Of a DNA stretch of 64,000 nucleotides, positions 8,468 to 58,249 are shown piece by piece. Source of the DNA: a virus (lineage: Duplodnaviria; Heunggongvirae; Uroviricota; Caudoviricetes); IMG/VR virus record IMGVR_UViG_3300018481_000002, positions 23,199 through 87,198 of that record. One strand, 5' to 3'. Each line of letters starts with the position of its first letter. Position 1 is the stretch's first letter. The translations under genes and the position numbers were made by a program. Under the pieces are notes generated by a model. That model saw nothing but the letters and a program-made list of their open reading frames with translations, made no database searches and had not been told where the DNA came from.

Positions 8468-9136
8468 TCACACGTCGAACGTGAAGTCCAACGCCGACAA
8501 CGCCTGGTACTCCCGCACCGACTTCATCGGGTCCTCCACCGTCTCCGGGCGAAGGTTGTGCATCAGCAGGTACATGTACGACGGAGCCTGCGAACCCTCA
8601 CGGGCCTCCTCGGCGACCGTCTTGTGCTCGAAGTCGTGGTCGTCCTTGTCCTTCGAGTGGATCAGGCTCACCGTGGTGCCGTCACGCAGCACCGCGTACA
8701 GGTTGCGAACATCCCAACGCAGGAACGGCGGCAACGCAGCCGGGGGGAACGCAGCGATGAACCGCTCGTGGAACGACTCCACCGCCTCACGCACACGGCT
8801 CTCCTCGATGGGCTCACCCTTCTGCTGCTCGTACTGCTTCTTCACGCCCTCCACCAAAGTCGGGCGCGCCTCCAGCAGTTCGTCCACAGACAGCGGACGC
8901 CAACCCTCGACAGCCATCACCATCCCGAAGGAGTCCTCGGGGTAGCGGAAACCGGAGTCGAACCCAGCGAGCATGGACTCGGCGGGGTCGCCTGGGAGCT
9001 GGCCGATGAGCTCAACCAGCGGGTCGTTCGGGTCGCCCTTCAGGGCGTACATCTTGCTGGGCAGGTCCCATCCCTGGTTGGCGAGGTCGTCAGCCAAATC
9101 CTTCAGACGGGTGTCCAAAACCTCATTCGTTGTCAT
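8468..9136 (-). CDS. hypothetical protein (222 aa)
   Basis: ORF 8468..9310 trimmed to ATG (MTTNEVLD) preceded by GAGGAGG; upstream part Arg-rich. Confidence 0.6.
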   Translation of the reverse strand: MTTNEVLDTRLKDLADDLANQGWDLPSKMYALKGDPNDPLVELIGQLPGDPAESMLAGFDSGFRYPEDSFGMVMAVEGWRPLSVDELLEARPTLVEGVKKQYEQQKGEPIEESRVREAVESFHERFIAAFPPAALPPFLRWDVRNLYAVLRDGTTVSLIHSKDKDDHDFEHKTVAEEAREGSQAPSYMYLLMHNLRPETVEDPMKSVREYQALSALDFTFDV

Positions 9137-11281: not shown

Positions 11282-11725
11282 CTAGTAGGTGGGGTGCTTG
11301 TAGCCTTCGATCAGTTCCGTCATCTCGTACAACTGGTGCTTCAACAACTCGTGGGCACGCTTGGCGCGTGGCGAGTGAAGGTCACCTTCGATGATGTCCA
11401 TCAGCTCGTGGCTGGGAGTGTCCTCGTGCAGCCCATCGGTCAGGCCGAACACGTCCAGGACTTCCTCGTCGGTCACCTCGTCGACGTTGCCGGTGAGGCG
11501 GACCTTGTCCCTGCCTATCCAGTACAGCTGGGTTCCTTGGTCCGGCCTAGGGACGGTCCCAGCCTCCATGTCGTCCCCGACAGCCAGGTTGCCCTCCGAG
11601 TGCCGGTAGGTGCCGGAACTGAACGTGTATCCGTCCACGCCGTGCACCAACAGCCGGTCACCCACCTTCCAACGCTGGGTCTTGACTACCACTTCGACGA
11701 TGTCGCCGACCCGGTACTCAGGCAA
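11282..11725 (-). CDS. small protein with GDIVEVVV barrel motif and internal VTDEEVLDVFGL motif
   Basis: ORF track; family motifs. Confidence 0.65.
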   Translation of the reverse strand: MPEYRVGDIVEVVVKTQRWKVGDRLLVHGVDGYTFSSGTYRHSEGNLAVGDDMEAGTVPRPDQGTQLYWIGRDKVRLTGNVDEVTDEEVLDVFGLTDGLHEDTPSHELMDIIEGDLHSPRAKRAHELLKHQLYEMTELIEGYKHPTY

Positions 11726-12041
11726 GGCCGAACAACTCCTTCACCTCTTCATCGGTGACCTGGTCATACGGGAGCACCATCTGAATGCCCTTGTAGAAGA
11801 CGTCGACGAAGAACCCATGCTCACCCTTCTGGTTGGCCAGCACGACCATGCCGTCATTGGGGGTGTAACGATCCCTGTCGAAGTTGTACCCACATACGTA
11901 CACCGGCTCCGTTGGGTCGAAGTCGCCGCCTCCACCAGGACAACTGCTGTGATGTTCGGGGAGGATGGTGACCTCCTCACCCTCCTCGAATGTGACTCCG
12001 GCGATGGTGACGTACCGAGGCTTCTTGGTCTTCTTAGGCAA
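11718..12041 (-). CDS. small protein, TDEE-tail family (VTDEEVKELFGLA)
   Basis: tandem paralog, 8-nt overlap junction. Confidence 0.7.
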   Translation of the reverse strand: MPKKTKKPRYVTIAGVTFEEGEEVTILPEHHSSCPGGGGDFDPTEPVYVCGYNFDRDRYTPNDGMVVLANQKGEHGFFVDVFYKGIQMVLPYDQVTDEEVKELFGLA

Positions 12042-12351
12042 GGCCGAACAACTCCTTCACCTCGTCGTCGGTGACAGGCTTGATCTTCGGTTCGACAACC
12101 TGCCGGAGACCTCTCCACACCTGCACCCAGTGCCCGTGGAACCCACCCCGGTCGTTCACAACCAGCTGGCCGTCGTTCAGGTGGTTCTGGTTCCCCTCGG
12201 TGACGTTGTACCCGGCGACGTACTTCACCGAACTGACCCCACTCTTGTAGGTGACGATCACCGTCTCGCCAACCTTGAACTTCGCGGTCACGGTGCGGTC
12301 CTCCGAGTGGAACACCGTGAACTCGACTCCATCCTCAACCTCTTCATCCAA
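12034..12351 (-). CDS. small protein, TDEE-tail family (VTDDEVKELFGLA)
   Basis: tandem paralog, 8-nt overlap junction. Confidence 0.7.
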   Translation of the reverse strand: MDEEVEDGVEFTVFHSEDRTVTAKFKVGETVIVTYKSGVSSVKYVAGYNVTEGNQNHLNDGQLVVNDRGGFHGHWVQVWRGLRQVVEPKIKPVTDDEVKELFGLA

Positions 12352-12679
12352 GACCGAACACCTCCCTCACTTCCTCGTCAGTAACGGGCTTCCATCGGGG
12401 CACGATCAGCAGACGACCGGACGGGTCGTGGGTGTCACACCACCAGCCGCCACCGTCCTCACCTGGGACGTCGTGGATGGCGACCTGGTCCGTCCATGCG
12501 GAGTCGTCCTCGAAGGTGTAGTGCCCCACGTAGCCCTCGAAACCGTTATCGTAGGCGTCGATCATGCGCTTGTCTTTGAGCCAGTGCTCTAGCAAGACCA
12601 CCTCTTCGTCTTCGACGAACGTGACACCGTTGATCTCTTTCGACCTCGGGTAGTCCGGGTGCTTCTTCTTCTTAGCCAT
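12344..12679 (-). CDS. small protein, TDEE-tail family (VTDEEVREVFGLG)
   Basis: tandem paralog, 8-nt overlap junction. Confidence 0.7.
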   Translation of the reverse strand: MAKKKKHPDYPRSKEINGVTFVEDEEVVLLEHWLKDKRMIDAYDNGFEGYVGHYTFEDDSAWTDQVAIHDVPGEDGGGWWCDTHDPSGRLLIVPRWKPVTDEEVREVFGLG

Positions 12680-14065: not shown

Positions 14066-14093
14066 GGGGGGACGGACATGGCGTCCGCCCCCC
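14066..14093 (-). terminator. GC-rich hairpin (GGGGGGACGGAC-atggc-GTCCGCCCCCC) downstream of vWA gene; contains CGGAC-N5-GTCCG
   Basis: 11-bp stem with one mismatch seen directly; no U-tract. Confidence 0.45.
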
Positions 14094-14105
14094 GCCACCC
14101 TTACC

Positions 14106-15809
14106 TCAGACCTTCTCGAAAATCTGCTGCACCGACTCCGGCTTCAACTCGTTCACCGGAATCGTCGCGTCACTGATCTTCTCCAAAAGGCCCAACGGAC
14201 CCTCCGAGTAGCGCATGTCGTAACCGCCACCGATGTACACCGAGTACATCCTGACACCGACACGCTCCCTCTCCTTGTTGAACTTCTCGATCCAGTCCTC
14301 GGCCAAGTTCGCGGCACCATCGGTGATGAACACGATGTCAGCCTTGCCCTTGTTCTCGTCGTCGAACGACTTCGACGCCTTCTCCAACGCCTCGGTCAAC
14401 ACCCCATCGAACTGGGTGCCACCGTTCGCCTGGGTCCCGAGGAAAGCCAGCACCTTGTCGAACGGTCCCTTACCCTCGGGGAAGTCGAAACGCTCTCGGT
14501 CGTTGTTCGACCCGAAGAACATGGCGTAGTAGTCGCGGTCTTCCTCGGCTGCAAACCTTCGCAAAGCCTCCGCGACACCCATCGCCCATCGGAACGGGTC
14601 TCCCTGCATCGACCCGGACTTGTCGATCGCGATCACGATCGGGCCCTTGCCGACGTCTTCGGAGCCACGCATCTTGTACACGAGCAATTCCTTGTCGACG
14701 TATCGACGGAAGAACTCGTACGACGTCTCCTCGGTTGCGAGCAAGGCAAGCTGCGGACGGAGGACTCGCTTGAGGTCGTTGCCGGTTTCGACGTCGTACG
14801 CCTCGTGGGGCACGTCGTTGATACGCTGGGCCTTCACGCCCAGAGCGAATCGCTTCATCCGACCGATGACCTCGGCGAGTTCCTTCATCTCGGCGGTGCG
14901 GAGCTTGTCCGCCATCGCCATCCGCGACTCAGGGTTCATCGAGTACCACTCGCCGTCTTCGAGGCCGATCCCCTTGCGGAGACCCTCGATCTCGGACACC
15001 TCCTTCGTCGCCGCGTCCAGCGCCTCGTGAGCGAGCCGGTCCAGGTCGAGACCATCGAGGGCCTCGTCGAACTGGCGTTCCCACTCAGCCTCCTGCTGGT
15101 TCAGCGCATCCTCGGAGTTCGGGTCGAAGTCCTCGTCACCCTCGGTGGTGAGGTCCTCGTCCTCCAGGTCCTGACCGCCGCCGCCGTCTCCACCCTGGGA
15201 GCCATCGGTGGACGGGCCCTTCTGGCCGGAGTTCTTCTTGCCTCCGCCCTTGCCCTGACCTCCCTGGCCCTGGCCTCCGCCCTGACCCTGACCGCCACCC
15301 GGAGGGGCGTTGGGGTCGGGCTGGTCGACGTTTTGGACACGTGTCAGCATCTCGCGGACGGTCTCGCCCATCGAGTCCAACGCCACGGTCGACATGACCG
15401 GGTCGCTGGCCGTCATCTCCTGGAGGTCCTGGAGCTGCGGGTTGTCCATCATCTCCTGCATGATCCGGCGAACCGGGAACAGGTCTCGTTCGATCTCCCT
15501 CTTGGGGGCCAGCTTGGGTGCGGCCTTGTAGAAGGTGTGGAACAGTGACTCGACGAGCTCGGGCGAGGGGTCGAATCCCTGCCGCTCGCCGCCACGGTGC
15601 TCGTCGCCGACCTCCAGGTCGGAGATCAGGTCGTCCACGGTGCGGGTCTTGCGTGCCTCACCGTAGATCCGCTGGTCCCAGCGGTTCTGCTCGACGACGT
15701 GGCGGTGACGCGGCTTCGGCTGGGACCTCTGGTAGGCAGGGTCGCCAACGATCTCTTGTCCGGTGTTCAGGGCCATTCGTGCCCTGAGCCGGTCCATGAA
15801 GCTGGTCAT
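14106..15809 (-). CDS. vWA (von Willebrand A, MIDAS) protein with Gly/Gln low-complexity linker
   Basis: VIAIDKSGSMQG (DxSxS MIDAS); GGGQGQGGGQGQGGQGKGGGKK linker; GAGGAGG RBS. Confidence 0.8.
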   Translation of the reverse strand: MTSFMDRLRARMALNTGQEIVGDPAYQRSQPKPRHRHVVEQNRWDQRIYGEARKTRTVDDLISDLEVGDEHRGGERQGFDPSPELVESLFHTFYKAAPKLAPKREIERDLFPVRRIMQEMMDNPQLQDLQEMTASDPVMSTVALDSMGETVREMLTRVQNVDQPDPNAPPGGGQGQGGGQGQGGQGKGGGKKNSGQKGPSTDGSQGGDGGGGQDLEDEDLTTEGDEDFDPNSEDALNQQEAEWERQFDEALDGLDLDRLAHEALDAATKEVSEIEGLRKGIGLEDGEWYSMNPESRMAMADKLRTAEMKELAEVIGRMKRFALGVKAQRINDVPHEAYDVETGNDLKRVLRPQLALLATEETSYEFFRRYVDKELLVYKMRGSEDVGKGPIVIAIDKSGSMQGDPFRWAMGVAEALRRFAAEEDRDYYAMFFGSNNDRERFDFPEGKGPFDKVLAFLGTQANGGTQFDGVLTEALEKASKSFDDENKGKADIVFITDGAANLAEDWIEKFNKERERVGVRMYSVYIGGGYDMRYSEGPLGLLEKISDATIPVNELKPESVQQIFEKV

Positions 15810-17356: not shown

Positions 17357-17382
17357 CTGGGCGGCACCCGAGTGCCGCCCAG
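17357..17382 (-). terminator. perfect hairpin CTGGGCGGCAC-ccga-GTGCCGCCCAG between MoxR gene and next RBS
   Basis: 11-bp perfect stem seen directly; flanked by GACGAGTGTCCGGA palindrome abutting MoxR stop. Confidence 0.45.
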
Positions 17383-17400
17383 TTCAGACGAGTGTCCGGA

Positions 17401-24361: not shown

Positions 24362-24400
24362 GTGGTTGCCTCCAGGGGCATTGGGTTGTTTGGACGGATG

Positions 24401-25081
24401 TCAGAAATCAGTGGTGGGGGTGTCCGGACCCTTTGTTCGGTTTCCTTCGAGGCCGAAGATCCGCATGCCGATCTCCACCTTGACGATCACCAGATGGCTC
24501 TTTTCGTCGTCGCTGAAGGTGTAATCGGGGCTGTAGAGCATCCTCGACGCCTGCTGGAGGAGCGCCACTCCCGCTGTCTTGCGTTGGGTGGTGTCCTCCA
24601 GCAGGAGGGTCCACTTGAGCAGGTCTTCCACCTGGTCGACGGTGGTCGCCCCCGGGATCGCGTTGATGATCTCTGCGTAAGTGAGTCGAGTATCGAAGGC
24701 GTTCGGCTCCCCCTCGAAGGGATCCGTGAAGGCCTCGTAGATCACCGGCTCCGGTCCCGGCACTGGAGTTGTGGGCTCGTAGAACCGGCGCGGGCCGTAA
24801 CCAGGGGCCTCGGGGGCCTGGGCCTGGTCGTCGTCGGCGTCCATCTTGGCGAGCCGGACGATCTCCGCAGCAGTGTTCGGGGCTTCCTTGCGGATCAGCC
24901 GAGCGGACTGCTCCACGTTCCTCTCTAGGTCCCTGAAGGCGTGGAGAGGAATCGACTCTTCCTTCTCGGGCACCTCGTCGGTGGCCTTCGACCAGTCGTC
25001 CTTCACGCTGTCGATCTGCTCGAACAACTCATCCACTGCACCTTCAACGAAGGCCTTCACGACCTTGAGTAGGGCATCCAT
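24401..25081 (-). CDS. hypothetical protein (226 aa)
   Basis: ORF track. Confidence 0.6.
   Translation of the reverse strand: MDALLKVVKAFVEGAVDELFEQIDSVKDDWSKATDEVPEKEESIPLHAFRDLERNVEQSARLIRKEAPNTAAEIVRLAKMDADDDQAQAPEAPGYGPRRFYEPTTPVPGPEPVIYEAFTDPFEGEPNAFDTRLTYAEIINAIPGATTVDQVEDLLKWTLLLEDTTQRKTAGVALLQQASRMLYSPDYTFSDDEKSHLVIVKVEIGMRIFGLEGNRTKGPDTPTTDF
24404..24443 (-). promoter_or_regulatory. conserved 40-bp intergenic element, copy C
   Basis: agaaatcagtggtgggggtgtccggaccctttgttcggttt, about 40 nt upstream of ATPase ATG. Confidence 0.5.
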
Positions 25082-48051: not shown

Positions 48052-48744
48052 TCAGGCCACCGGCTGACCGGTCACGGCGTCGACCCAGCCCTTGCGGAAC
48101 GCCTTGGCGACGTACTTGTCGATCTGCTTGGGCGTACGGCGGGCCTCGTGACCCTCCGGCAGGGTCGCGTTGGTCTCCGCGAGGTTCTCGCGCAGCCACC
48201 ACTCACGCTTCTTGGTGGCCTGGCCGAACTGGTTGCGCGGGGCACGACGACGACGCTGCTCCGCCTCGCTGGCCTCCTCGAAGGACACCCGCTTGCGGAC
48301 CTTGACCTCGGGCTCGGGGGTCACGACGGCCTTGGCCTTCTTGCCCTTCTTGCCCTTCTTCGCCTTGCCGCCCTGGGACTCGCGGGTCACGGCCTGCGCC
48401 TTGCCCACGATGTCCACACCCTTGGCGCGCTCCACGTTGCGGGAGCCGATGGCCCACGTGCCCACCAGCGGCTGCTTCTGGAGCACCACGGCCTTCGACA
48501 GGTTCAGGACACTGGTGTGGTCCTGCGCCCAGTCGTGGTCGGCGATGAACCGCTCACGGTTCTTGCTGGTCAGGCAGCGGTGACCCTCCACCTGGCCGTT
48601 GACGGCGGGCTTGCGTGCCGCCATCTTGCGGGGCTTGCCCTTGTTGGCCCGCTTGGTCTTCGCGGGCGTGTCCAGGTCCAGCCCGTAGGCCTTGACCAGG
48701 ATCTGCAGACCCTTGCGGGCGAGCGGGGACAGGTTCTTCGACAT
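48052..48744 (-). CDS. hypothetical basic protein (230 aa)
   Basis: ORF track; GAGGAGG RBS. Confidence 0.6.
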   Translation of the reverse strand: MSKNLSPLARKGLQILVKAYGLDLDTPAKTKRANKGKPRKMAARKPAVNGQVEGHRCLTSKNRERFIADHDWAQDHTSVLNLSKAVVLQKQPLVGTWAIGSRNVERAKGVDIVGKAQAVTRESQGGKAKKGKKGKKAKAVVTPEPEVKVRKRVSFEEASEAEQRRRRAPRNQFGQATKKREWWLRENLAETNATLPEGHEARRTPKQIDKYVAKAFRKGWVDAVTGQPVA

Positions 48745-48850: not shown

Positions 48851-49026
48851 CTAGCGGGGAGGGGTGACCGTGCGGTGCTTCAGCACGACCCTGGGCACGA
48901 AGCGCTGCTCAGCGAGCCGGATGCGCTCCTCCTCGGCCTGGCGACGCTCCCTGGAGGCGCGGAACTCGGCGGCCTGGCGGTTGACGCGTGCCCGGAACAC
49001 GGTGGCGGGGGTGGCGTTCGTCTGCA
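48851..49026 (-). CDS. possible 58-aa basic peptide
   Basis: unlisted ORF MQTNATPATVFRARVNRQAAEFRASRERRQAEEERIRLAEQRFVPRVVLKHRTVTPPR with AAGGAGA RBS. Confidence 0.4.
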
Positions 49027-49057
49027 TGATGGTTCTCCTTGGTGGTGGTGGTGGAGG

Positions 49058-49074
49058 TTTGGACGGGTGTCCGA
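49058..49074. promoter_or_regulatory. palindromic motif TTGGACGGGTGTCCGAA (GGAC-N4-GTCC)
   Basis: member of recurrent CGGAC-N4/5-GTCCG set (14071, 17388, 50631, 51050, 51371, 53241, 55141). Confidence 0.4.
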
Positions 49075-49077
49075 ACC

Positions 49078-49542
49078 TCAGATCCCGCCGAGGTCGGCGA
49101 TCTCGGCGGGTGTGAAGCCGGTGAGCAGGCCAACGGCAGCCTCGGTGGAGCCGTCAAGGTGGGTGAGTGAGTCCTTGACAGCAGCGTTGATGGTCGCCAT
49201 CTCCCTGGTGGTGGGGTGCTCGCCACCGTGGTCCTGGGGCAGCAGGCAGTAGTCACCCCGACCGAGAGCGAACGAGCACGCAGCCACCGGGGTGGCGGTC
49301 GGCGAGCCGTGCAGGGTGAGGCCCTTGGCGGTCAGGGCCACGTTGCGTCCGTTGACGGTGAGTGTCCCGTCGGACATGTACTCCACGAACCTGGGGTCCA
49401 GGTGGTCCATGTCGGCGTGGGCGAGAGCCAGTCGGGCAGCGGCCTCGATGCCGTGTCCCTCGTCCAGGACACCGTCGAAGTACCGGTAGACGGCGGCCTC
49501 GGCAGCGGTGAACTCCACCGTGCGAGCGTCGAGGCGCTTCAC
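49078..49542 (-). CDS. hypothetical protein (about 154 aa)
   Basis: ORF 49078..49905 trimmed to GTG (VKRLDARTVEF) with GTGA overlap; upstream part Gln/Gly/Arg artefact. Confidence 0.5.
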   Translation of the reverse strand: MKRLDARTVEFTAAEAAVYRYFDGVLDEGHGIEAAARLALAHADMDHLDPRFVEYMSDGTLTVNGRNVALTAKGLTLHGSPTATPVAACSFALGRGDYCLLPQDHGGEHPTTREMATINAAVKDSLTHLDGSTEAAVGLLTGFTPAEIADLGGI

Positions 49543-49826
49543 TTCGAGCCACCCTTCTTGGCCGCCTTGCCCTTGGGGTTGCCCCTGGCCTTCTTGGGGG
49601 TCACAGTGGCCTCGACCTTGGGCTTGCCCTTGTCCTTGGGCTTGGGGTGCCCGTTGGCCTGCCCCAGGAGTCGGTCGCGCTCCTTGACGGCACCGACACC
49701 GGTCCCGAGCCGGGTGTCGAGGACGCCGAGCTGGCCCTTCCAGTCCCGGGTGGCCCTGGCCTCGGTGTTGGCCTCGGCGACACCCTGGCGCTGGTCCTGC
49801 CTGGCCCTGCTGTTGTTCCTTGGCAT
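49539..49826 (-). CDS. Lys-rich basic protein (95 aa)
   Basis: ORF track; AAGGAGG RBS. Confidence 0.5.
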   Translation of the reverse strand: MPRNNSRARQDQRQGVAEANTEARATRDWKGQLGVLDTRLGTGVGAVKERDRLLGQANGHPKPKDKGKPKVEATVTPKKARGNPKGKAAKKGGSK

Positions 49827-49910
49827 GGTTGTGCCTCCTTTGTGCAGAGGTGACCGTCACCTCTCCGCTGCCCACCAGCACGAGGCTGGTGGGCGCGGGC
49901 TTCATGGCGG

Positions 49911-50306
49911 TCAGTTGCAGATGTCGCAGAAGCGGTCGCCGCAGGGGTACGTCTCGGGGCTCATCACCCAGGCGAAGAGGTCGCGCTCCTCGTCGGACTC
50001 GGGCATCTCCAGGATGTCCGCCTCGATGGTGTCCTCCCAGAACTCGAAGGACTCGCAGTCGCGTGCCCAGTCCAGCGCCTCCTGGGCGGCCTCAGCGGCC
50101 TCCTCGGCCAGTTCGGCGAGGCCCTCAGCGATCGCCTTGGCGGCACCGAAGCGGGCGTCGATCACACGGGGGGTGGTGCCCCAGCGGATCTCGGAGCCGC
50201 GTCCCTTCTCCTTGTACCAGCGGTTGGTGGTGGCGGCGCTCTCGCCGCCGTGGCCACCACCCCTGCGGCCAGGGAGTCGAGGGCGGATGGTGCGGGAGTC
50301 GTACAT
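49911..50306 (-). CDS. hypothetical acidic protein (131 aa)
   Basis: ORF trimmed to MYDSRTIRPR with ttAGGAGG RBS. Confidence 0.55.
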   Translation of the reverse strand: MYDSRTIRPRLPGRRGGGHGGESAATTNRWYKEKGRGSEIRWGTTPRVIDARFGAAKAIAEGLAELAEEAAEAAQEALDWARDCESFEFWEDTIEADILEMPESDEERDLFAWVMSPETYPCGDRFCDICN

Positions 50307-50382
50307 GTTGCCTCCTAAGGGCATCGTTGGGCTGACACTTCCAAGGGCCACCCAGCCCGATCTGGGTGGCCGTGTGCAGGTG

Positions 50383-50589
50383 TCAGGCCTGGCGGACGGT
50401 GACGGGGTGACGCTGCCCGTCGGTCAGTCGGGAGAAGGCGTGCTTGGCGACCCTGGGCTTGCGCGCCAACTTGGCGGGCTGGGTCATGTCGACCGTCTCC
50501 ACCACCAGGTGCGGGTTGTTGACCCGGTGGCCGTCGGTGTTCGTCTGGTGCCGCAGCGTGGAGCCGACGAACAGGGCGTGGTTTTGCAT
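50383..50589 (-). CDS. hypothetical small protein (68 aa)
   Basis: ORF trimmed to MQNHALFVGS with cAGGAGG RBS. Confidence 0.5.
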   Translation of the reverse strand: MQNHALFVGSTLRHQTNTDGHRVNNPHLVVETVDMTQPAKLARKPRVAKHAFSRLTDGQRHPVTVRQA

Positions 50590-50630
50590 GGTGGCCTCCT
50601 GGGCCTTGGTGTGCAGATACCGCTGCACTC

Positions 50631-50650
50631 GGTCCGGACGGGTGTCCGTA
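50631..50650. promoter_or_regulatory. palindromic motif GGTCCGGACGGGTGTCCGTA
   Basis: CGGAC-N4-GTCCG; followed (minus strand) by TCTGCACA box, RBS, ATG. Confidence 0.45.
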
Positions 50651-50655
50651 GCGAA

Positions 50656-50680
50656 CCCTCAACCCCCGAGAGGTTGAGGG
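50656..50680 (-). terminator. hairpin CCCTCAAC-N9-GTTGAGGG just after stop of 50698..51012
   Basis: seen directly. Confidence 0.4.
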
Positions 50681-50697
50681 CCGCTAGCCAGTACCCG

Positions 50698-51012
50698 TCA
50701 GACGGTGGCGGTGGCGGCCTTGACGGCCGCCTTGGTGAAGGTGATGCCGTCCTTGGCCTTGAGGGCCACGACCGCCTTCACCCACGCCGCACGGGTGTAG
50801 TTCTTGCCCAGCGACGCGCCCAGGGTGGAACGCTCCACCTTGGTCAGCCCACCGAGGACGGTGGCGCTGCGGCGGTTGACCCGCTTGGCGCGCATGTCCT
50901 TGGCGAACGTGTTCTTCTTGGCCTTGGCCTTCTTGGTCTTCGCGGGGACGAGGTCGAACCCCATCTGTGCCGCGAGGGCCTTCAGGGCCTTGGTGTCCTG
51001 CTTCGCGCTCAT
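50698..51012 (-). CDS. small basic protein (104 aa), paralog of 53321..53611
   Basis: MSAKQDTKALKALAAQMGFDLVPAKTKKAKAKK vs MSKQQNTKALQALAAEMGFDLVPAKAKKAKK. Confidence 0.6.
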   Translation of the reverse strand: MSAKQDTKALKALAAQMGFDLVPAKTKKAKAKKNTFAKDMRAKRVNRRSATVLGGLTKVERSTLGASLGKNYTRAAWVKAVVALKAKDGITFTKAAVKAATATV

Positions 51013-51049
51013 GGGAGCACCTTTCTGTTTGCGCAGTACCGCTGCGCAC

Positions 51050-51070
51050 GGTCCGGACTGAGTGTCCGTA
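51050..51070. promoter_or_regulatory. palindromic motif GGTCCGGACTGAGTGTCCGTA
   Basis: CGGAC-N5-GTCCG; same downstream architecture. Confidence 0.45.
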
Positions 51071-51087
51071 GCGAAGGTCCAGCCGTA

Positions 51088-51107
51088 ACTGGACCCCGCT
51101 AACCGGT
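51088..51107 (-). terminator. hairpin GGTCCAG-ccgtaa-CTGGACC
   Basis: seen directly. Confidence 0.35.
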
Positions 51108-51112
51108 ACTCG

Positions 51113-51324
51113 TCAGGCACCAGACCAGGTGTCGAACTGGTCCTTGGGCTTGGGGGCGACGTGGTTGAGGTAGGCGAAGGTGATGATCTTCTGCATGCAG
51201 CGCAGGGCGCACCAGAAGCACCTGCCCTCGAAGCAACCAGTGGCGCAGCAGGGCGGGGGCGTGATCATCGGGCACCGAACCTTCCCGCGAACACGATCTT
51301 GAGCAGGGAGCGGAAGTTCTTCAT
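51113..51324 (-). CDS. possible 19-aa leader ORF (MKNFRSLLKIVFAGRFGAR) coupled by ATGA to 51-aa Cys-rich ORF (MITPPPCCATGCFEGRCFWCALRC...)
   Basis: strong ccAAGGAGG RBS before first ATG; both ORFs read from minus strand; speculative. Confidence 0.25.
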
Positions 51325-51370
51325 GGCGTGGCCTCCTTGGGCCTTTGTGCAGAAGCCGTCTGCGGCGGTT

Positions 51371-51390
51371 TTGGACGAGTGTCCGGATCA
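51371..51390. promoter_or_regulatory. palindromic motif TTGGACGAGTGTCCGGATCA overlapping stop of 51388..51588
   Basis: identical core GAGTGTCCGGATCA also abuts MoxR stop at 17388..17403. Confidence 0.45.
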
Positions 51391-51588
51391 CACCCAGGGG
51401 AGCCGGTAGATGATCTCCCCCACGAGGTAGTCCCGCTTGGTGGTGGGGTCGGTGTAGCGGTTGCGGTGGGCGAGGCGGCGGGTCCAGCGGATGAAGTCGG
51501 GCCAGGCCTCCACGGCGCAGATGGCCAGGGTGATGAGCAGGGCCACCCACAGGGGCCAAAAGGCGAGGATGAGGGCGTGGTTGTTCAT
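51388..51588 (-). CDS. small membrane protein (66 aa)
   Basis: ORF trimmed to MNNHALILAFWPLWVALLITLAICAV; ATGA coupling. Confidence 0.45.
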   Translation of the reverse strand: MNNHALILAFWPLWVALLITLAICAVEAWPDFIRWTRRLAHRNRYTDPTTKRDYLVGEIIYRLPWV

Positions 51589-53232: not shown

Positions 53233-53320
53233 TGGGATGATGGACCGGGCGGTCCAGGGGCGGCACCCCTCCCCGAGGAGGGATGCCGTCGAGTGCTGCC
53301 CGGGCCGTACTGGGGGTGGA

Positions 53321-53611
53321 TCAGAGGTGGCGACCCTGAGCCTTGAACTTCTTGACCGCCTTGGCCCACTGCTTGGCGGTGTAGTTGCCGCTACCACCCA
53401 ACTCGGCGGACAGGGTCTGACGGTGGGCCTTGGTCAGGCCGCCCAGGGGGTTGGCCTCGGCGCGGTTGATCCTGGCCGTGTAGCAGTGCTTCTTCGCGGC
53501 CTTGAGGCCCTTGGGCATCTTCTTGGCCTTCTTGGCCTTGGCCGGGACCAAGTCGAAGCCCATCTCCGCAGCCAGCGCCTGGAGGGCCTTCGTGTTCTGC
53601 TGCTTGCTCAT
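53321..53611 (-). CDS. small basic protein (96 aa), paralog of 50698..51012
   Basis: ORF trimmed to MSKQQNTKALQ; last gene of leftward block. Confidence 0.6.
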   Translation of the reverse strand: MSKQQNTKALQALAAEMGFDLVPAKAKKAKKMPKGLKAAKKHCYTARINRAEANPLGGLTKAHRQTLSAELGGSGNYTAKQWAKAVKKFKAQGRHL

Positions 53612-54116: not shown

Positions 54117-54275
54117 GTGACTGACTTCCCGGATCGGTGTTGGCGGTGTGGTCCTGGCGCGCAGTGGAAGCACTTCATGTCTGGGGTGTCTGGGGGTGGC
54201 TGGTTGTACGCGTACTGCGGGAAGTGCAGGCAGGTGACTCCTGTGGAGCTTCTTGACGGCCCAACCACCTCGTAG
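54117..54275 (+). CDS. possible 52-aa zinc-ribbon peptide (VTDFPDRCWRCG...CGKCRQVTPVELLDGPTTS)
   Basis: GTG preceded by GAGGAG; unique sequence between repeat arrays 1 and 2. Confidence 0.35.
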   Translation: MTDFPDRCWRCGPGAQWKHFMSGVSGGGWLYAYCGKCRQVTPVELLDGPTTS

Positions 54276-54296
54276 GTACATTCGAGGCTGTTTCGT

Positions 54297-55249: not shown

Positions 55250-55495
55250 ATGAGGGACCTGGTTCGTTGGCTGTGGGAGTCCACCTCCACGACGGAGCGG
55301 GTTCTCATGCTGGCGTTGGGGTTGTGCCTGTCGGTGATGGCGGTCGCGTTGCTGGTTGGGTTGATTTCGGCGGTTTCAAGTTCACCTGACGGGGTATCCC
55401 CAAAATTGGTACCCCACACACGGGTCGAGCAGGTGTACGATCCAAGTACCGCGCCCCCCACCACGCGGTCACCACTGGATGAGGAGCATCCATGA
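55250..55495 (+). CDS. small membrane protein (81 aa), first gene of rightward block
   Basis: ORF track; GAGGGAG RBS; TM segment VLMLALGLCLSVMAVALLVGLISAV. Confidence 0.6.
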   Translation: MRDLVRWLWESTSTTERVLMLALGLCLSVMAVALLVGLISAVSSSPDGVSPKLVPHTRVEQVYDPSTAPPTTRSPLDEEHP

Positions 55496-57922: not shown

Positions 57923-58037
57923 CGACCACGACTGCCAGGTCCCCGAGGCCACCCGCGAAGGCCGTTGGCAGTGCCCCATCTGTGGAGAGCCCTGGTACAC
58001 CGCGTTCGCTAAGCACCTGAAGGAAGAGGAAGCGTGA
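57915..58037 (+). CDS. possible 40-aa zinc-ribbon peptide (..WQCPICGEPWYTAFAKHLKEEEA)
   Basis: TTG start; frame of ORF 57822..58037. Confidence 0.3.
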   Translation: MFDDHDCQVPEATREGRWQCPICGEPWYTAFAKHLKEEEA

Positions 58038-58249
58038 CCAACGGAAAAGACTGGCCTACCGTCCAGGACAAACTGGACAGGATCCTCCAGTGCGAGACCG
58101 ACCTCAACGAGGCCAAGTACGAGTTCAAGAGAGCAGTCCTCGCCGCCCATGAGGCAGGGGCTTCCTGGGGTGACATTGCCTCCATCCTCGGTGTTTCACG
58201 CCAAGCGGCGTGGCAACGCTTCGGGCTCCCAACTACGGGAGAACATTGA
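58034..58249 (+). CDS. putative helix-turn-helix DNA-binding protein (71 aa)
   Basis: GASWGDIASILGVSRQAAWQRFG resembles HTH; GTGA overlap start. Confidence 0.5.
   Translation: MTNGKDWPTVQDKLDRILQCETDLNEAKYEFKRAVLAAHEAGASWGDIASILGVSRQAAWQRFGLPTTGEH

Follow-up and report, generated by a model that had tools for sequence, protein, structure and literature searches.

The stretch examined here (positions 49,058 to 51,390) lies in a 64,000-nt piece of a tailed-phage genome (IMG/VR record IMGVR_UViG_3300018481_000002), hereafter the window. It holds a run of small minus-strand genes whose spacers carry a short recurring sequence, GGAC...GTCC, termed here the core. The window belongs to a metagenomic contig of 144.5 kb (ENA ERZ27251452 k141_6182525; a 147.7-kb JGI copy exists) and, together with 17 kb of flanking contig, our scans covered 81 kb of the approximately 145-kb phage. 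Gene calls on the source contig place the start of a leftward (minus-strand) set at 53611 and that of a rightward set at 55250, the two divergent sets being separated by a 1.6-kb hub without called genes. The core-bearing stretch occupies the first 4.5 kb of the leftward unit. There, about 12 small genes (53611 to 47830) have spacers of 50–132 nt between them, with hairpins and recurring sequence blocks, and the genes farther downstream abut or overlap. None of the genes of the stretch has a match in Pfam or PHROG. The window also encodes phage-like content, namely a MoxR/VWA pair and a GH16 glycosidase; genes for a tyrosine integrase and RuvB-like, ligase-like and WGR proteins were found in the left flank, and the phage has one tRNA-Leu. 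The rightward unit leads to the phage's own sigma factor, a FliA/WhiG-family protein (TIGR02479, 226 bits, exceeding the cut-off; best model WhiG) encoded 3.2–4.0 kb past the right end of the window, at 14704-15477 of the contig piece L126 that reaches past this end. Judging from this WhiG-like sigma factor, the host may be an actinobacterium.

As shown in Table 1, the core has several copies, designated here by the letters of the spacers in which they lie. The pattern GGACACNC(N)GTCC matches the window four times against 0.34 expected, and none of 100 shuffled sequences reached four matches. All four are on the minus (coding) strand and in spacers. An earlier note on this DNA had listed four palindromes in the stretch; GGAC...GTCC is indeed present four times (49061-49072, 50636-50647, 51055-51067, and 51373-51384), 2–5 nt away from where it had been placed, but the full 5-bp palindrome CGGAC/GTCCG occurs only at 50635-50648 and 51054-51068, the other two copies having 4-bp arms. 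With GTCY allowed (GGACAC[CT]C(N)GTC[CT]) the count rises to six against 0.17 expected, again all on the minus strand. The two additional matches are found after the MoxR stop (17386-17397) and, doubtfully, inside a gene (9105-9116). The copy after the MoxR stop, which the same note had put at 17388, shares 17 identical nucleotides, TGATCCGGACACTCGTC, with the copy at 51390-51374, so the reported identity of these two sites holds; a 16-mer version of the core reads CGGACACCCGTCCAAAC. The remaining extra copies fared less well. Those at 14071, which is inside a different terminator-like hairpin, and 55141, which has no 3′ arm, are probably chance occurrences or relics, and that at 53241 has matching arms around a different spacer. 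Matches to the linear core inside genes (9105, 2687, and 56789) all encode L/N-x-R-L and are probably coding coincidences. The enrichment over shuffled background concerns the specific core; for the loose palindrome GGAC-N4-6-GTCC there is none, the window having 16 matches vs. 11.5 expected. No further copy was found in the 17 kb of flanking contig, and the rightward unit is likewise without the core.

Alignment of about ten copies, including those from the relatives described below (contigs L127 and L129), gave [G/T][G/A]AC-[A/G][C/T][C/T]C(A)-GTC[C/T/A]-RRA. The centre is 4 or 5 nt long (6 nt in the possible analogue in spacer S2), and GTCT stands in place of GTCC in M, which is non-coding, and in N, the doubtful copy inside a gene. 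In copy X (TGAC) and at L127 3360-3374 (TGAAC) the left arm is replaced by the upstream TGA with the linear core kept, and at L127-2906 no stem is possible. The centre ACYC and the 3′ flank show asymmetric conservation, and all non-coding copies are oriented with transcription. The core overlaps the upstream TGA or starts 0–6 nt from it in A, F, M, X, and L127-3363. In three other copies it lies behind the GC stem of a large hairpin, at a distance of 5 nt in L129-870 and of 8 nt in both B and C, where it is only 1 nt past the lower stem (ending at 51069 and 50649, respectively). It is the first conserved element past the upstream stop codon or past the hairpin. The distance to the start codon is 16–52 nt and the Shine-Dalgarno (SD) sequence is abutted by no copy, except possibly L127-2906. 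In A, B, C, and M a hairpin follows about 8–10 nt past the core, and then the SD. These observations argue that the conserved property is a linear, strand-specific core beside a stop codon or hairpin and not a dyad. A single dimeric regulator had been proposed for all sites; variable spacing (4, 5, possibly 6 nt), loss of the left arm to TGA in two copies, asymmetric conservation, and the single orientation disfavor a symmetric dimer operator and favor a linear signal at the upstream border of the region for expression of the next gene.

Comparison of the intergenic regions showed that one cassette of about 85 nt is present twice, in spacers B (51112-51013) and C (50697-50590). It runs from the stop codon to just before the ribosome binding site (RBS) and has the order TGACGRGTACYGGY - TAGCG - variable upper stem - CGCTA - C - GGACACYC(A)GTCC - GGACCGWGY - GCAG - CGGTA(T) - CTGCRCA. 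The GC hairpins described in the earlier note are present in both (51069-51101 and 50649-50686). Between the two cassettes the lower stem of this large hairpin is kept, while the upper stem is wholly different yet perfectly paired, both partners of six pairs having been exchanged. A single compensatory change distinguishes the second inverted repeat of B from that of C (GCGCAG/CTGCGC vs. GTGCAG/CTGCAC). Folding of spacers B and C against shuffles gave z-scores of −4.7 and −3.7, and values from −3.5 to −4.7 were obtained for the hairpins of spacers B, C, D, E, S2, and M. The folds and one covarying position, in two sequences only, suggest that in B and C the stop region may pair over a long range with the core or the second repeat. 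The two cassettes are direct repeats flanking the gene 51012..50698, and they seem to act as duplicated recombination modules as well.

The other spacers have no more than parts of this module. The architecture that had been ascribed to every copy is complete in spacer C, but in B there are CTGCGCA and a weak RBS. No GC hairpin is present in spacer A, which has GCAGACGG: its core comes right after the stop, and behind it lie the GCAGA/TCTGC repeat with its TCTGCACA box and then the SD box. Spacer F consists of the core, a C/A-rich tract, and the SD only, without a hairpin, GCAGCGG or TCTGCACA. Unrelated hairpins are found in D, S2, S3, G, and H. Nor does every small gene possess the module, as only 4 of about 11 spacers of the stretch carry the core. 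A word search of eleven spacers retrieved just three recurring elements: the SD, CTGCACA (5/11), and CGGACAC (4/11). The RBS box, counted in the earlier note as part of the module, is not specific to it; its extended form GCCC(N)AGGAGGC has 10 copies in the window vs. 0.13 expected, all on the coding (minus) strand, and is also present in the relative L129 at 597 and 904. We thus concluded that the module is a mosaic of independently distributed elements and not one repeated unit. In spacer A the strong SD box belongs to a 19-codon open reading frame (ORF; 51324..51265, minus strand, MKNFRSLLKIVFAGRFGAR), which overlaps by ATGA with the Cys-rich 51-aa gene 51268..51113; only the latter was recorded by the gene caller. 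This ORF may encode an upstream leader peptide or serve translational coupling.

No close relative of the phage was found in the collections searched. A megablast search of 50,697 deposited phages gave no nucleotide match, and the VWA protein and the sigma factor had only remote matches (≤43% identity) in the same set. Protein and DNA-pattern scans of IMG/VR returned nothing or chance matches. Three proteins were compared with a set of 5.8 billion: for two the homologues were all distant, and one, the neighbouring 239-aa protein, matched only itself. Homologues of the GH16 glycosidase are on unrelated contigs of 52–59% GC without the motifs. A profile of the small-gene family found nothing in metagenome, viral, and genome contigs; a profile of two small paralogues led to two distant homologues with just about 45 C-terminal residues in common (53–55% identity). 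These sit on short contigs, L127/L128 and L129, with 65–66% GC, and their neighbouring genes are unrelated to those of the window.

The core was nevertheless found in these distant relatives, in spacers of the same organization despite the unrelated flanking genes. At L127 3360 the order is TGA-ACACCCGTCCAAATC-CACAACCACGAAAGG-ATG, with a C/A-rich tract and an RBS; its counterpart in spacer F reads TGAGGTTCGG-ACACCCGTCCAAACC-TCCACC...AAGGAG. At approximately 866-870 of L129 a hairpin is followed by TTGGACGCCCGTCCAG (core GGACGCCCGTCC), about 25 nt, GGCCCTAGGAGGCC, and ATG. At L127 2906 a hairpin ending in GAAC precedes GCCCGTCAGAAAGG and ATG. The chance of a 13-nt identity within 5.8 kb is estimated at about 2e-4. 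Since such an identity is improbable by chance, the core is under selection and not merely left over from recent duplication. The earlier suggestion of a shared regulatory signal gains from this recurrence in the same context, and the core is accordingly a conserved, functional gene-expression signal.

Table 1. Positions of the core, associated inverted repeats and boxes, and other repeats in the window.
Feature	Position	Strand	Remarks
Core copy A, GGACACTCGTCC	51373..51384	minus	3 nt past TGA of gene 51588..51388; then AAAACC
Core copy B, GGACACTCAGTCC	51055..51067	minus	5-nt centre, closed by C-G
Core copy C, GGACACCCGTCC	50636..50647	minus	closed by C-G
Core copy F, GGACACCCGTCC	49061..49072	minus	5 nt past TGA; then AAACC, C/A-rich tract, RBS
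Core copy M, GGACACTCGTCT	17386..17397	minus	3 nt past MoxR stop; then strong hairpin 17357-17382, RBS of next gene
Degenerate core copy X, TGACATCCGTCC (also as TGACATCCGTCCAAAC)	24392..24403	minus	then AAAC; left arm is the TGA stop of ORF 24401..25081
Doubtful core copy N, GGACACCCGTCT	9105..9116	minus	6 nt past stop, inside next gene, encodes LDTRL; may be coding coincidence
Possible diverged analogue, spacer S2, GGACCGCCCGGTCC	53242..53255	minus	6-nt centre; between two hairpins, upstream of GCCCAGGAGGC; only arms shared
Large hairpin, cassette B	51069..51101	minus	lower stem TAGCG/CGCTA; upper GGTCCAG/CTGGACC; no U-tract
Large hairpin, cassette C	50649..50686	minus	lower stem TAGCG/CGCTA; upper CCCTCAACC/GGTTGAGGG
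Second inverted repeat, spacer A	51349..51363	minus	GCAGA-CGGCT-TCTGC; runs into TCTGCACA box 51346-51353
Second inverted repeat, cassette B	51030..51048	minus	TGCGCAG-CGGTA-CTGCGCA
Second inverted repeat, cassette C	50611..50628	minus	GTGCAG-CGGTAT-CTGCAC; then extended SD box 50594-50604
Repeat, spacer E	49841..49871	minus	GCAG...CTGC closes longer palindrome AGGTGAC-G-GTCACCT, then TCTGCACA box; no GGAC core; upstream hairpin 49870-49894
Extended SD box GCCCAAGGAGGC, spacer A	51331..51342	minus	before 19-codon ORF 51324..51265
GCCC(N)AGGAGGC copies	8125, 26930, 30839, 36611, 39241, 43194, 50077, 50594, 51331, 53192	minus	50077 inside gene
(CCNNG)n arrays	55242-55188, 54944-54860, 54815-54751, 54407-54298, 54108-54009, 53998-53964	minus-strand reading	
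AAACCGAACA-N14-16-CCCCACC copies	53908, 30899, 24443, 15869, 11280	minus	53908 in hub, upstream of first leftward gene

Our preferred, still tentative, reading is that the core may be a phage-specific restart or promoter-type signal placed behind attenuating hairpins and not of the host sigma-70 type. The small orphan genes of the leftward unit would be separated by composite expression cassettes, each with some of four elements: a GC hairpin past the stop, with no U-tract; the 12–16-nt core (G)GAC-R-Y-C-C-GTC-Y, usually followed by RRAC; a small hairpin GCAG...CTGC(R)CA; and the extended SD box. The upstream hairpins would attenuate read-through, and the core, as a single-block promoter-type signal, would mark the restart point for expression of the next gene. 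Transcripts starting a few nucleotides past the core would thus carry the second hairpin (at MoxR, the large hairpin) at their 5′ end. We favor this reading because it would explain the orientation of the copies, their placement at the start of spacers or behind hairpins, the hairpin that follows in A, B, C, and M, and the conservation across diverged phages. It is also favored by the enrichment and strand bias of the core, by its absence from the 17-kb flanks, and by the fully compensated upper stem in B and C. A near-identical promoter in front of each gene had been suggested in the earlier note; no TANNNT −10 hexamer is present in spacers A–F and no sigma-70-like site was found on the minus strand between 46 and 56 kb. 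This lack of host-type sites, in a phage that encodes its own sigma factor, likewise favors a signal of another type.

Several findings weigh against such a role. Conservation is confined to a single short block, and a second promoter element at constant spacing is lacking. The core is unlike the sigma-28 consensus, and no TAAA-N15-GCCGATAA-type site was found in the 81 kb; promoters dependent on a FliA/WhiG (sigma-28) factor were therefore set aside for their unmatched two-block consensus, although the phage encodes a sigma factor of this family. In the MoxR copy the core is upstream of a strong hairpin, in L127-2906 it lies just 16 nt before the start codon, and spacers D, E, S2, S3, G, and H are without it. 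Moreover, there are only about nine non-coding copies, several of them from recent duplication, which makes the statistics of position and orientation weak.

Second in rank, and possible, is an RNA-level element in a polycistronic mRNA. According to this, a GGAC/GUCC hairpin or a single-stranded site at cistron boundaries would act in processing, stability or factor binding, and the large hairpins would act as 3′ stabilizers and not as terminators. RNase III sites between the early genes of T7 and the stop-proximal hairpins of the REP (repetitive extragenic palindromic) type are comparable. Every copy is on the sense strand, as this explanation expects, and the change of GTCC to GTCT (M, doubtful N) keeps G-U pairing; a hairpin also tolerates both a 4-nt and a 5-nt loop, which a DNA dyad does not. 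The compensatory change in the second inverted repeat and the folding of spacers B and C, far better than that of shuffles, point in the same direction. Mycobacterial RNA polymerase needs a U-tract for intrinsic termination (PMC3993855), and the hairpins here, having none, may be poor terminators if the host is indeed an actinobacterium. Yet the core hairpin itself is weak (4–5 bp), it forms poorly in three of about ten copies (X, L127-3363, and L127-2906) that keep the linear core, and it is absent from the minimum-free-energy fold of C and M. Were cleavage to take place 0–6 nt past the stop, the upstream cistron of A, F, M, and X would have no protection. No Rfam family matched: a scan with Rfam 15 gave only two sub-threshold chance matches, elsewhere in the 47–56 kb region. 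The core pairs with the next SD no better than shuffled cores do. On the same duplex energies, calculated for eight copies, we rejected the idea that the core is an anti-SD unmasked by the terminating ribosome, although in the MoxR copy the minimum-free-energy fold does pair the core with the SD.

A DNA operator for a phage regulator, either a palindromic dimer site or an asymmetric stoperator-like site that blocks elongation through the early operon, seems to us unlikely. It has in its favor the partial dyad GGAC/GTCC in seven of about ten copies and the clustering of four sites in the first 4.5 kb of the leftward unit, beside the divergent control hub. The intergenic position and single orientation fit the description of stoperators, and the tyrosine integrase suggests that the phage may be temperate and in need of a repressor. 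The dimer version is contradicted by the variable spacing of the arms, the asymmetric conservation, the loss of the left arm in two copies, and the uniform orientation. For either version, no credible regulator was found. The protein at 58034-58249, put forward in the earlier note, has only a sub-threshold helix-turn-helix match, and an oppositely oriented 226-aa gene in L126 is without a domain match. Copies are also lacking in the rightward unit and in the 17-kb flanks, and a 13-nt site identity between phages with unrelated neighbouring genes would be unusual for immunity specificity.

Less probable than an operator would be a stop-associated sequence read on the mRNA by a conserved host or phage factor as ribosomes or transcripts leave the upstream cistron, e.g., a multi-site antitermination, re-initiation or coupling signal recurring at each boundary between cistrons. 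If true, this would be a new class of intercistronic control element in a high-GC phage that may infect actinobacteria, the mirror image of start-associated sequences. We considered it least probable that the repeats are functionless relics of recent cassette duplication or recombination: B and C are clear duplicates flanking a gene with paralogues and A and M share 17 identical nucleotides, but the core is kept in distant relatives whose surrounding sequence and genes diverged beyond recognition, and the large hairpin shows compensatory replacement.

Among known systems, the closest concept is the promoter-early stem-loop (PeSL) of T4-type phages, a terminator/promoter cassette found before orphan genes, with a consensus sigma-70 promoter and an AT-rich upstream region (PMC2839356, PMC4122927). 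As in PeSLs, composite cassettes of a stem-loop and expression signals precede successive small orphan genes in a plastic early region, the intergenic stem-loops upstream of the orphan genes are stable, and direct repeats flank a gene, here B and C around 51012..50698. In contrast to PeSLs, there is no −35/−10 pair and the conserved block is a single GC-rich 12–16-mer. PeSLs are further marked by cassette-mediated insertion, deletion or replacement among related genomes, or by mini-circles; on this side, the observation here is that the gene flanked by the direct repeats B and C has paralogues.

Cluster K mycobacteriophages have the start-associated sequence (SAS) and its extended form (ESAS), strand-specific short repeats at gene boundaries whose function was still unverified in 2025 (PMC3203893, PMC12699233). 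The SAS is a 13-bp asymmetric, SD-containing sequence a few nucleotides before the start codon, with the consensus GGGATAGGAGCCC, and ESAS are paired 17-bp imperfect inverted repeats (PMC3203893, where stoperators are also mentioned). Similarly, the repeats described here are strand-specific, lie at gene boundaries in the non-structural half of the genome, and belong to a high-GC phage whose host may be an actinobacterium. It is the GCCC(N)AGGAGGC box of this phage that behaves like the SAS, with inverted repeats upstream of some boxes. The GGAC core, in turn, is tied to the stop or hairpin, 16–52 nt from the start codon and not abutting it, its sequence is unlike GGGATAGGAGCCC, and the inverted repeats have arms of 4–7 bp instead of 17 bp.

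Stoperators reportedly let the repressor block elongation in cluster A mycobacteriophages (L5 gp71; Brown et al. 1997). Being asymmetric motifs of about 13 bp in short intergenic gaps and in one orientation, they resemble the core in location and orientation. However, the sequence differs, there are here only about 6–7 copies in 81 kb, clustered in one operon, and no repressor was identified. The Streptomyces phage phiC31, which infects an actinobacterium, has conserved inverted repeats and repeated non-canonical early promoters, with repressor binding and transcription starts known. There too, a terminator, an inverted repeat, and an unusual promoter are repeated between early genes of a high-GC phage. 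In the nut sites of phage lambda (boxA/boxB), a 5-bp stem with a GNRA-like pentaloop is recognized by the Arg-rich N protein. A 4–5-bp hairpin with a conserved loop, early transcripts that cross hairpins, and the location of copy F directly upstream of a gene for an Arg-rich 58-aa protein are reminiscent of this system. A nut/N-like mechanism was nevertheless rejected, as the loop ACYC(A) is not GNRA-like, copies are many and not two, and the 58-aa protein has no detectable similarity to N.

The gene for this protein (49027..48851, minus strand) directly follows copy F; the protein is 22% arginine (RARVNRQAAEFRASRERRQAEEERIR), and no informative homologue of it was found. The gene flanked by cassettes B and C, 51012..50698, belongs to a small Lys-rich paralogous family together with 53611..53321 (54% identity by BLASTP, 60% by MAFFT) and the N-terminus of the 230-aa protein 48744..48052, all on the minus strand. 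The family N-terminus reads MS.KQ.TKAL.ALAA.MGFDLVPAK.KKAK, and only the C-terminal LGGLT...W.KAV part is common to the two metagenomic homologues. No match to the family was found in Pfam, PHROG, NCBIfam or among solved structures (PDB).

The hub between the two gene sets contains the sole sigma-70-like match of the 46–56 kb region, TTGACG-18-TACATT at 54253-54282 (plus strand). It points to the rightward genes and is a candidate host-dependent early promoter of that unit. Six pentamer-phased arrays, (CCNNG)n, of 7–22 units each (about 90 pentamers in total) are also located in the hub; runs of at least four perfect CCNNG units occur nowhere else in the window. Three of the arrays begin with CCTTGCCTTGC, two of these being preceded by ATGTGTAG, and uncalled Cys-rich plus-strand ORFs lie between arrays. 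Because of their 5-bp periodicity the arrays cannot be coding; an origin, a promoter hub, and a protein-binding array are candidate roles. They may be more unusual than the core itself. Another repeat confined to one strand, AAACCGAACA-N14-16-CCCCACC, often has a T-run behind it. Its five copies lie in spacers or where genes end, and a related CTGCACAACCGAAC with a hairpin comes after a gene at about 772 (minus strand) of L127. It could be a terminator-associated or promoter-like element. Finally, tandem and dispersed small paralogous gene families are found at 11434-12385 and at ten sites between 1633 and 40040 (minus-strand genes). The four copies of repeat family D7 lie 283–316 nt apart, and families D3 and D4 have ten copies each with conserved coding segments of 35–42 nt.

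Terminator/signal repeats resembling cassettes before small early genes are known from T4-type phages and phiC31, and the core is of this familiar kind, a phage intergenic regulatory repeat; only its stop-adjacent placement and its conservation across phages are unusual. Where a phage has none but orphan genes, intergenic repeats offer the main access to its regulation. At least three distinct classes of strand-specific motif were seen here in addition to the phage's own sigma factor, and the core is conserved across phages that share almost nothing else. Its role, if mapped, would provide a regulatory map of the early operon and might illuminate the SAS/ESAS-type motifs of actinobacterial phages.

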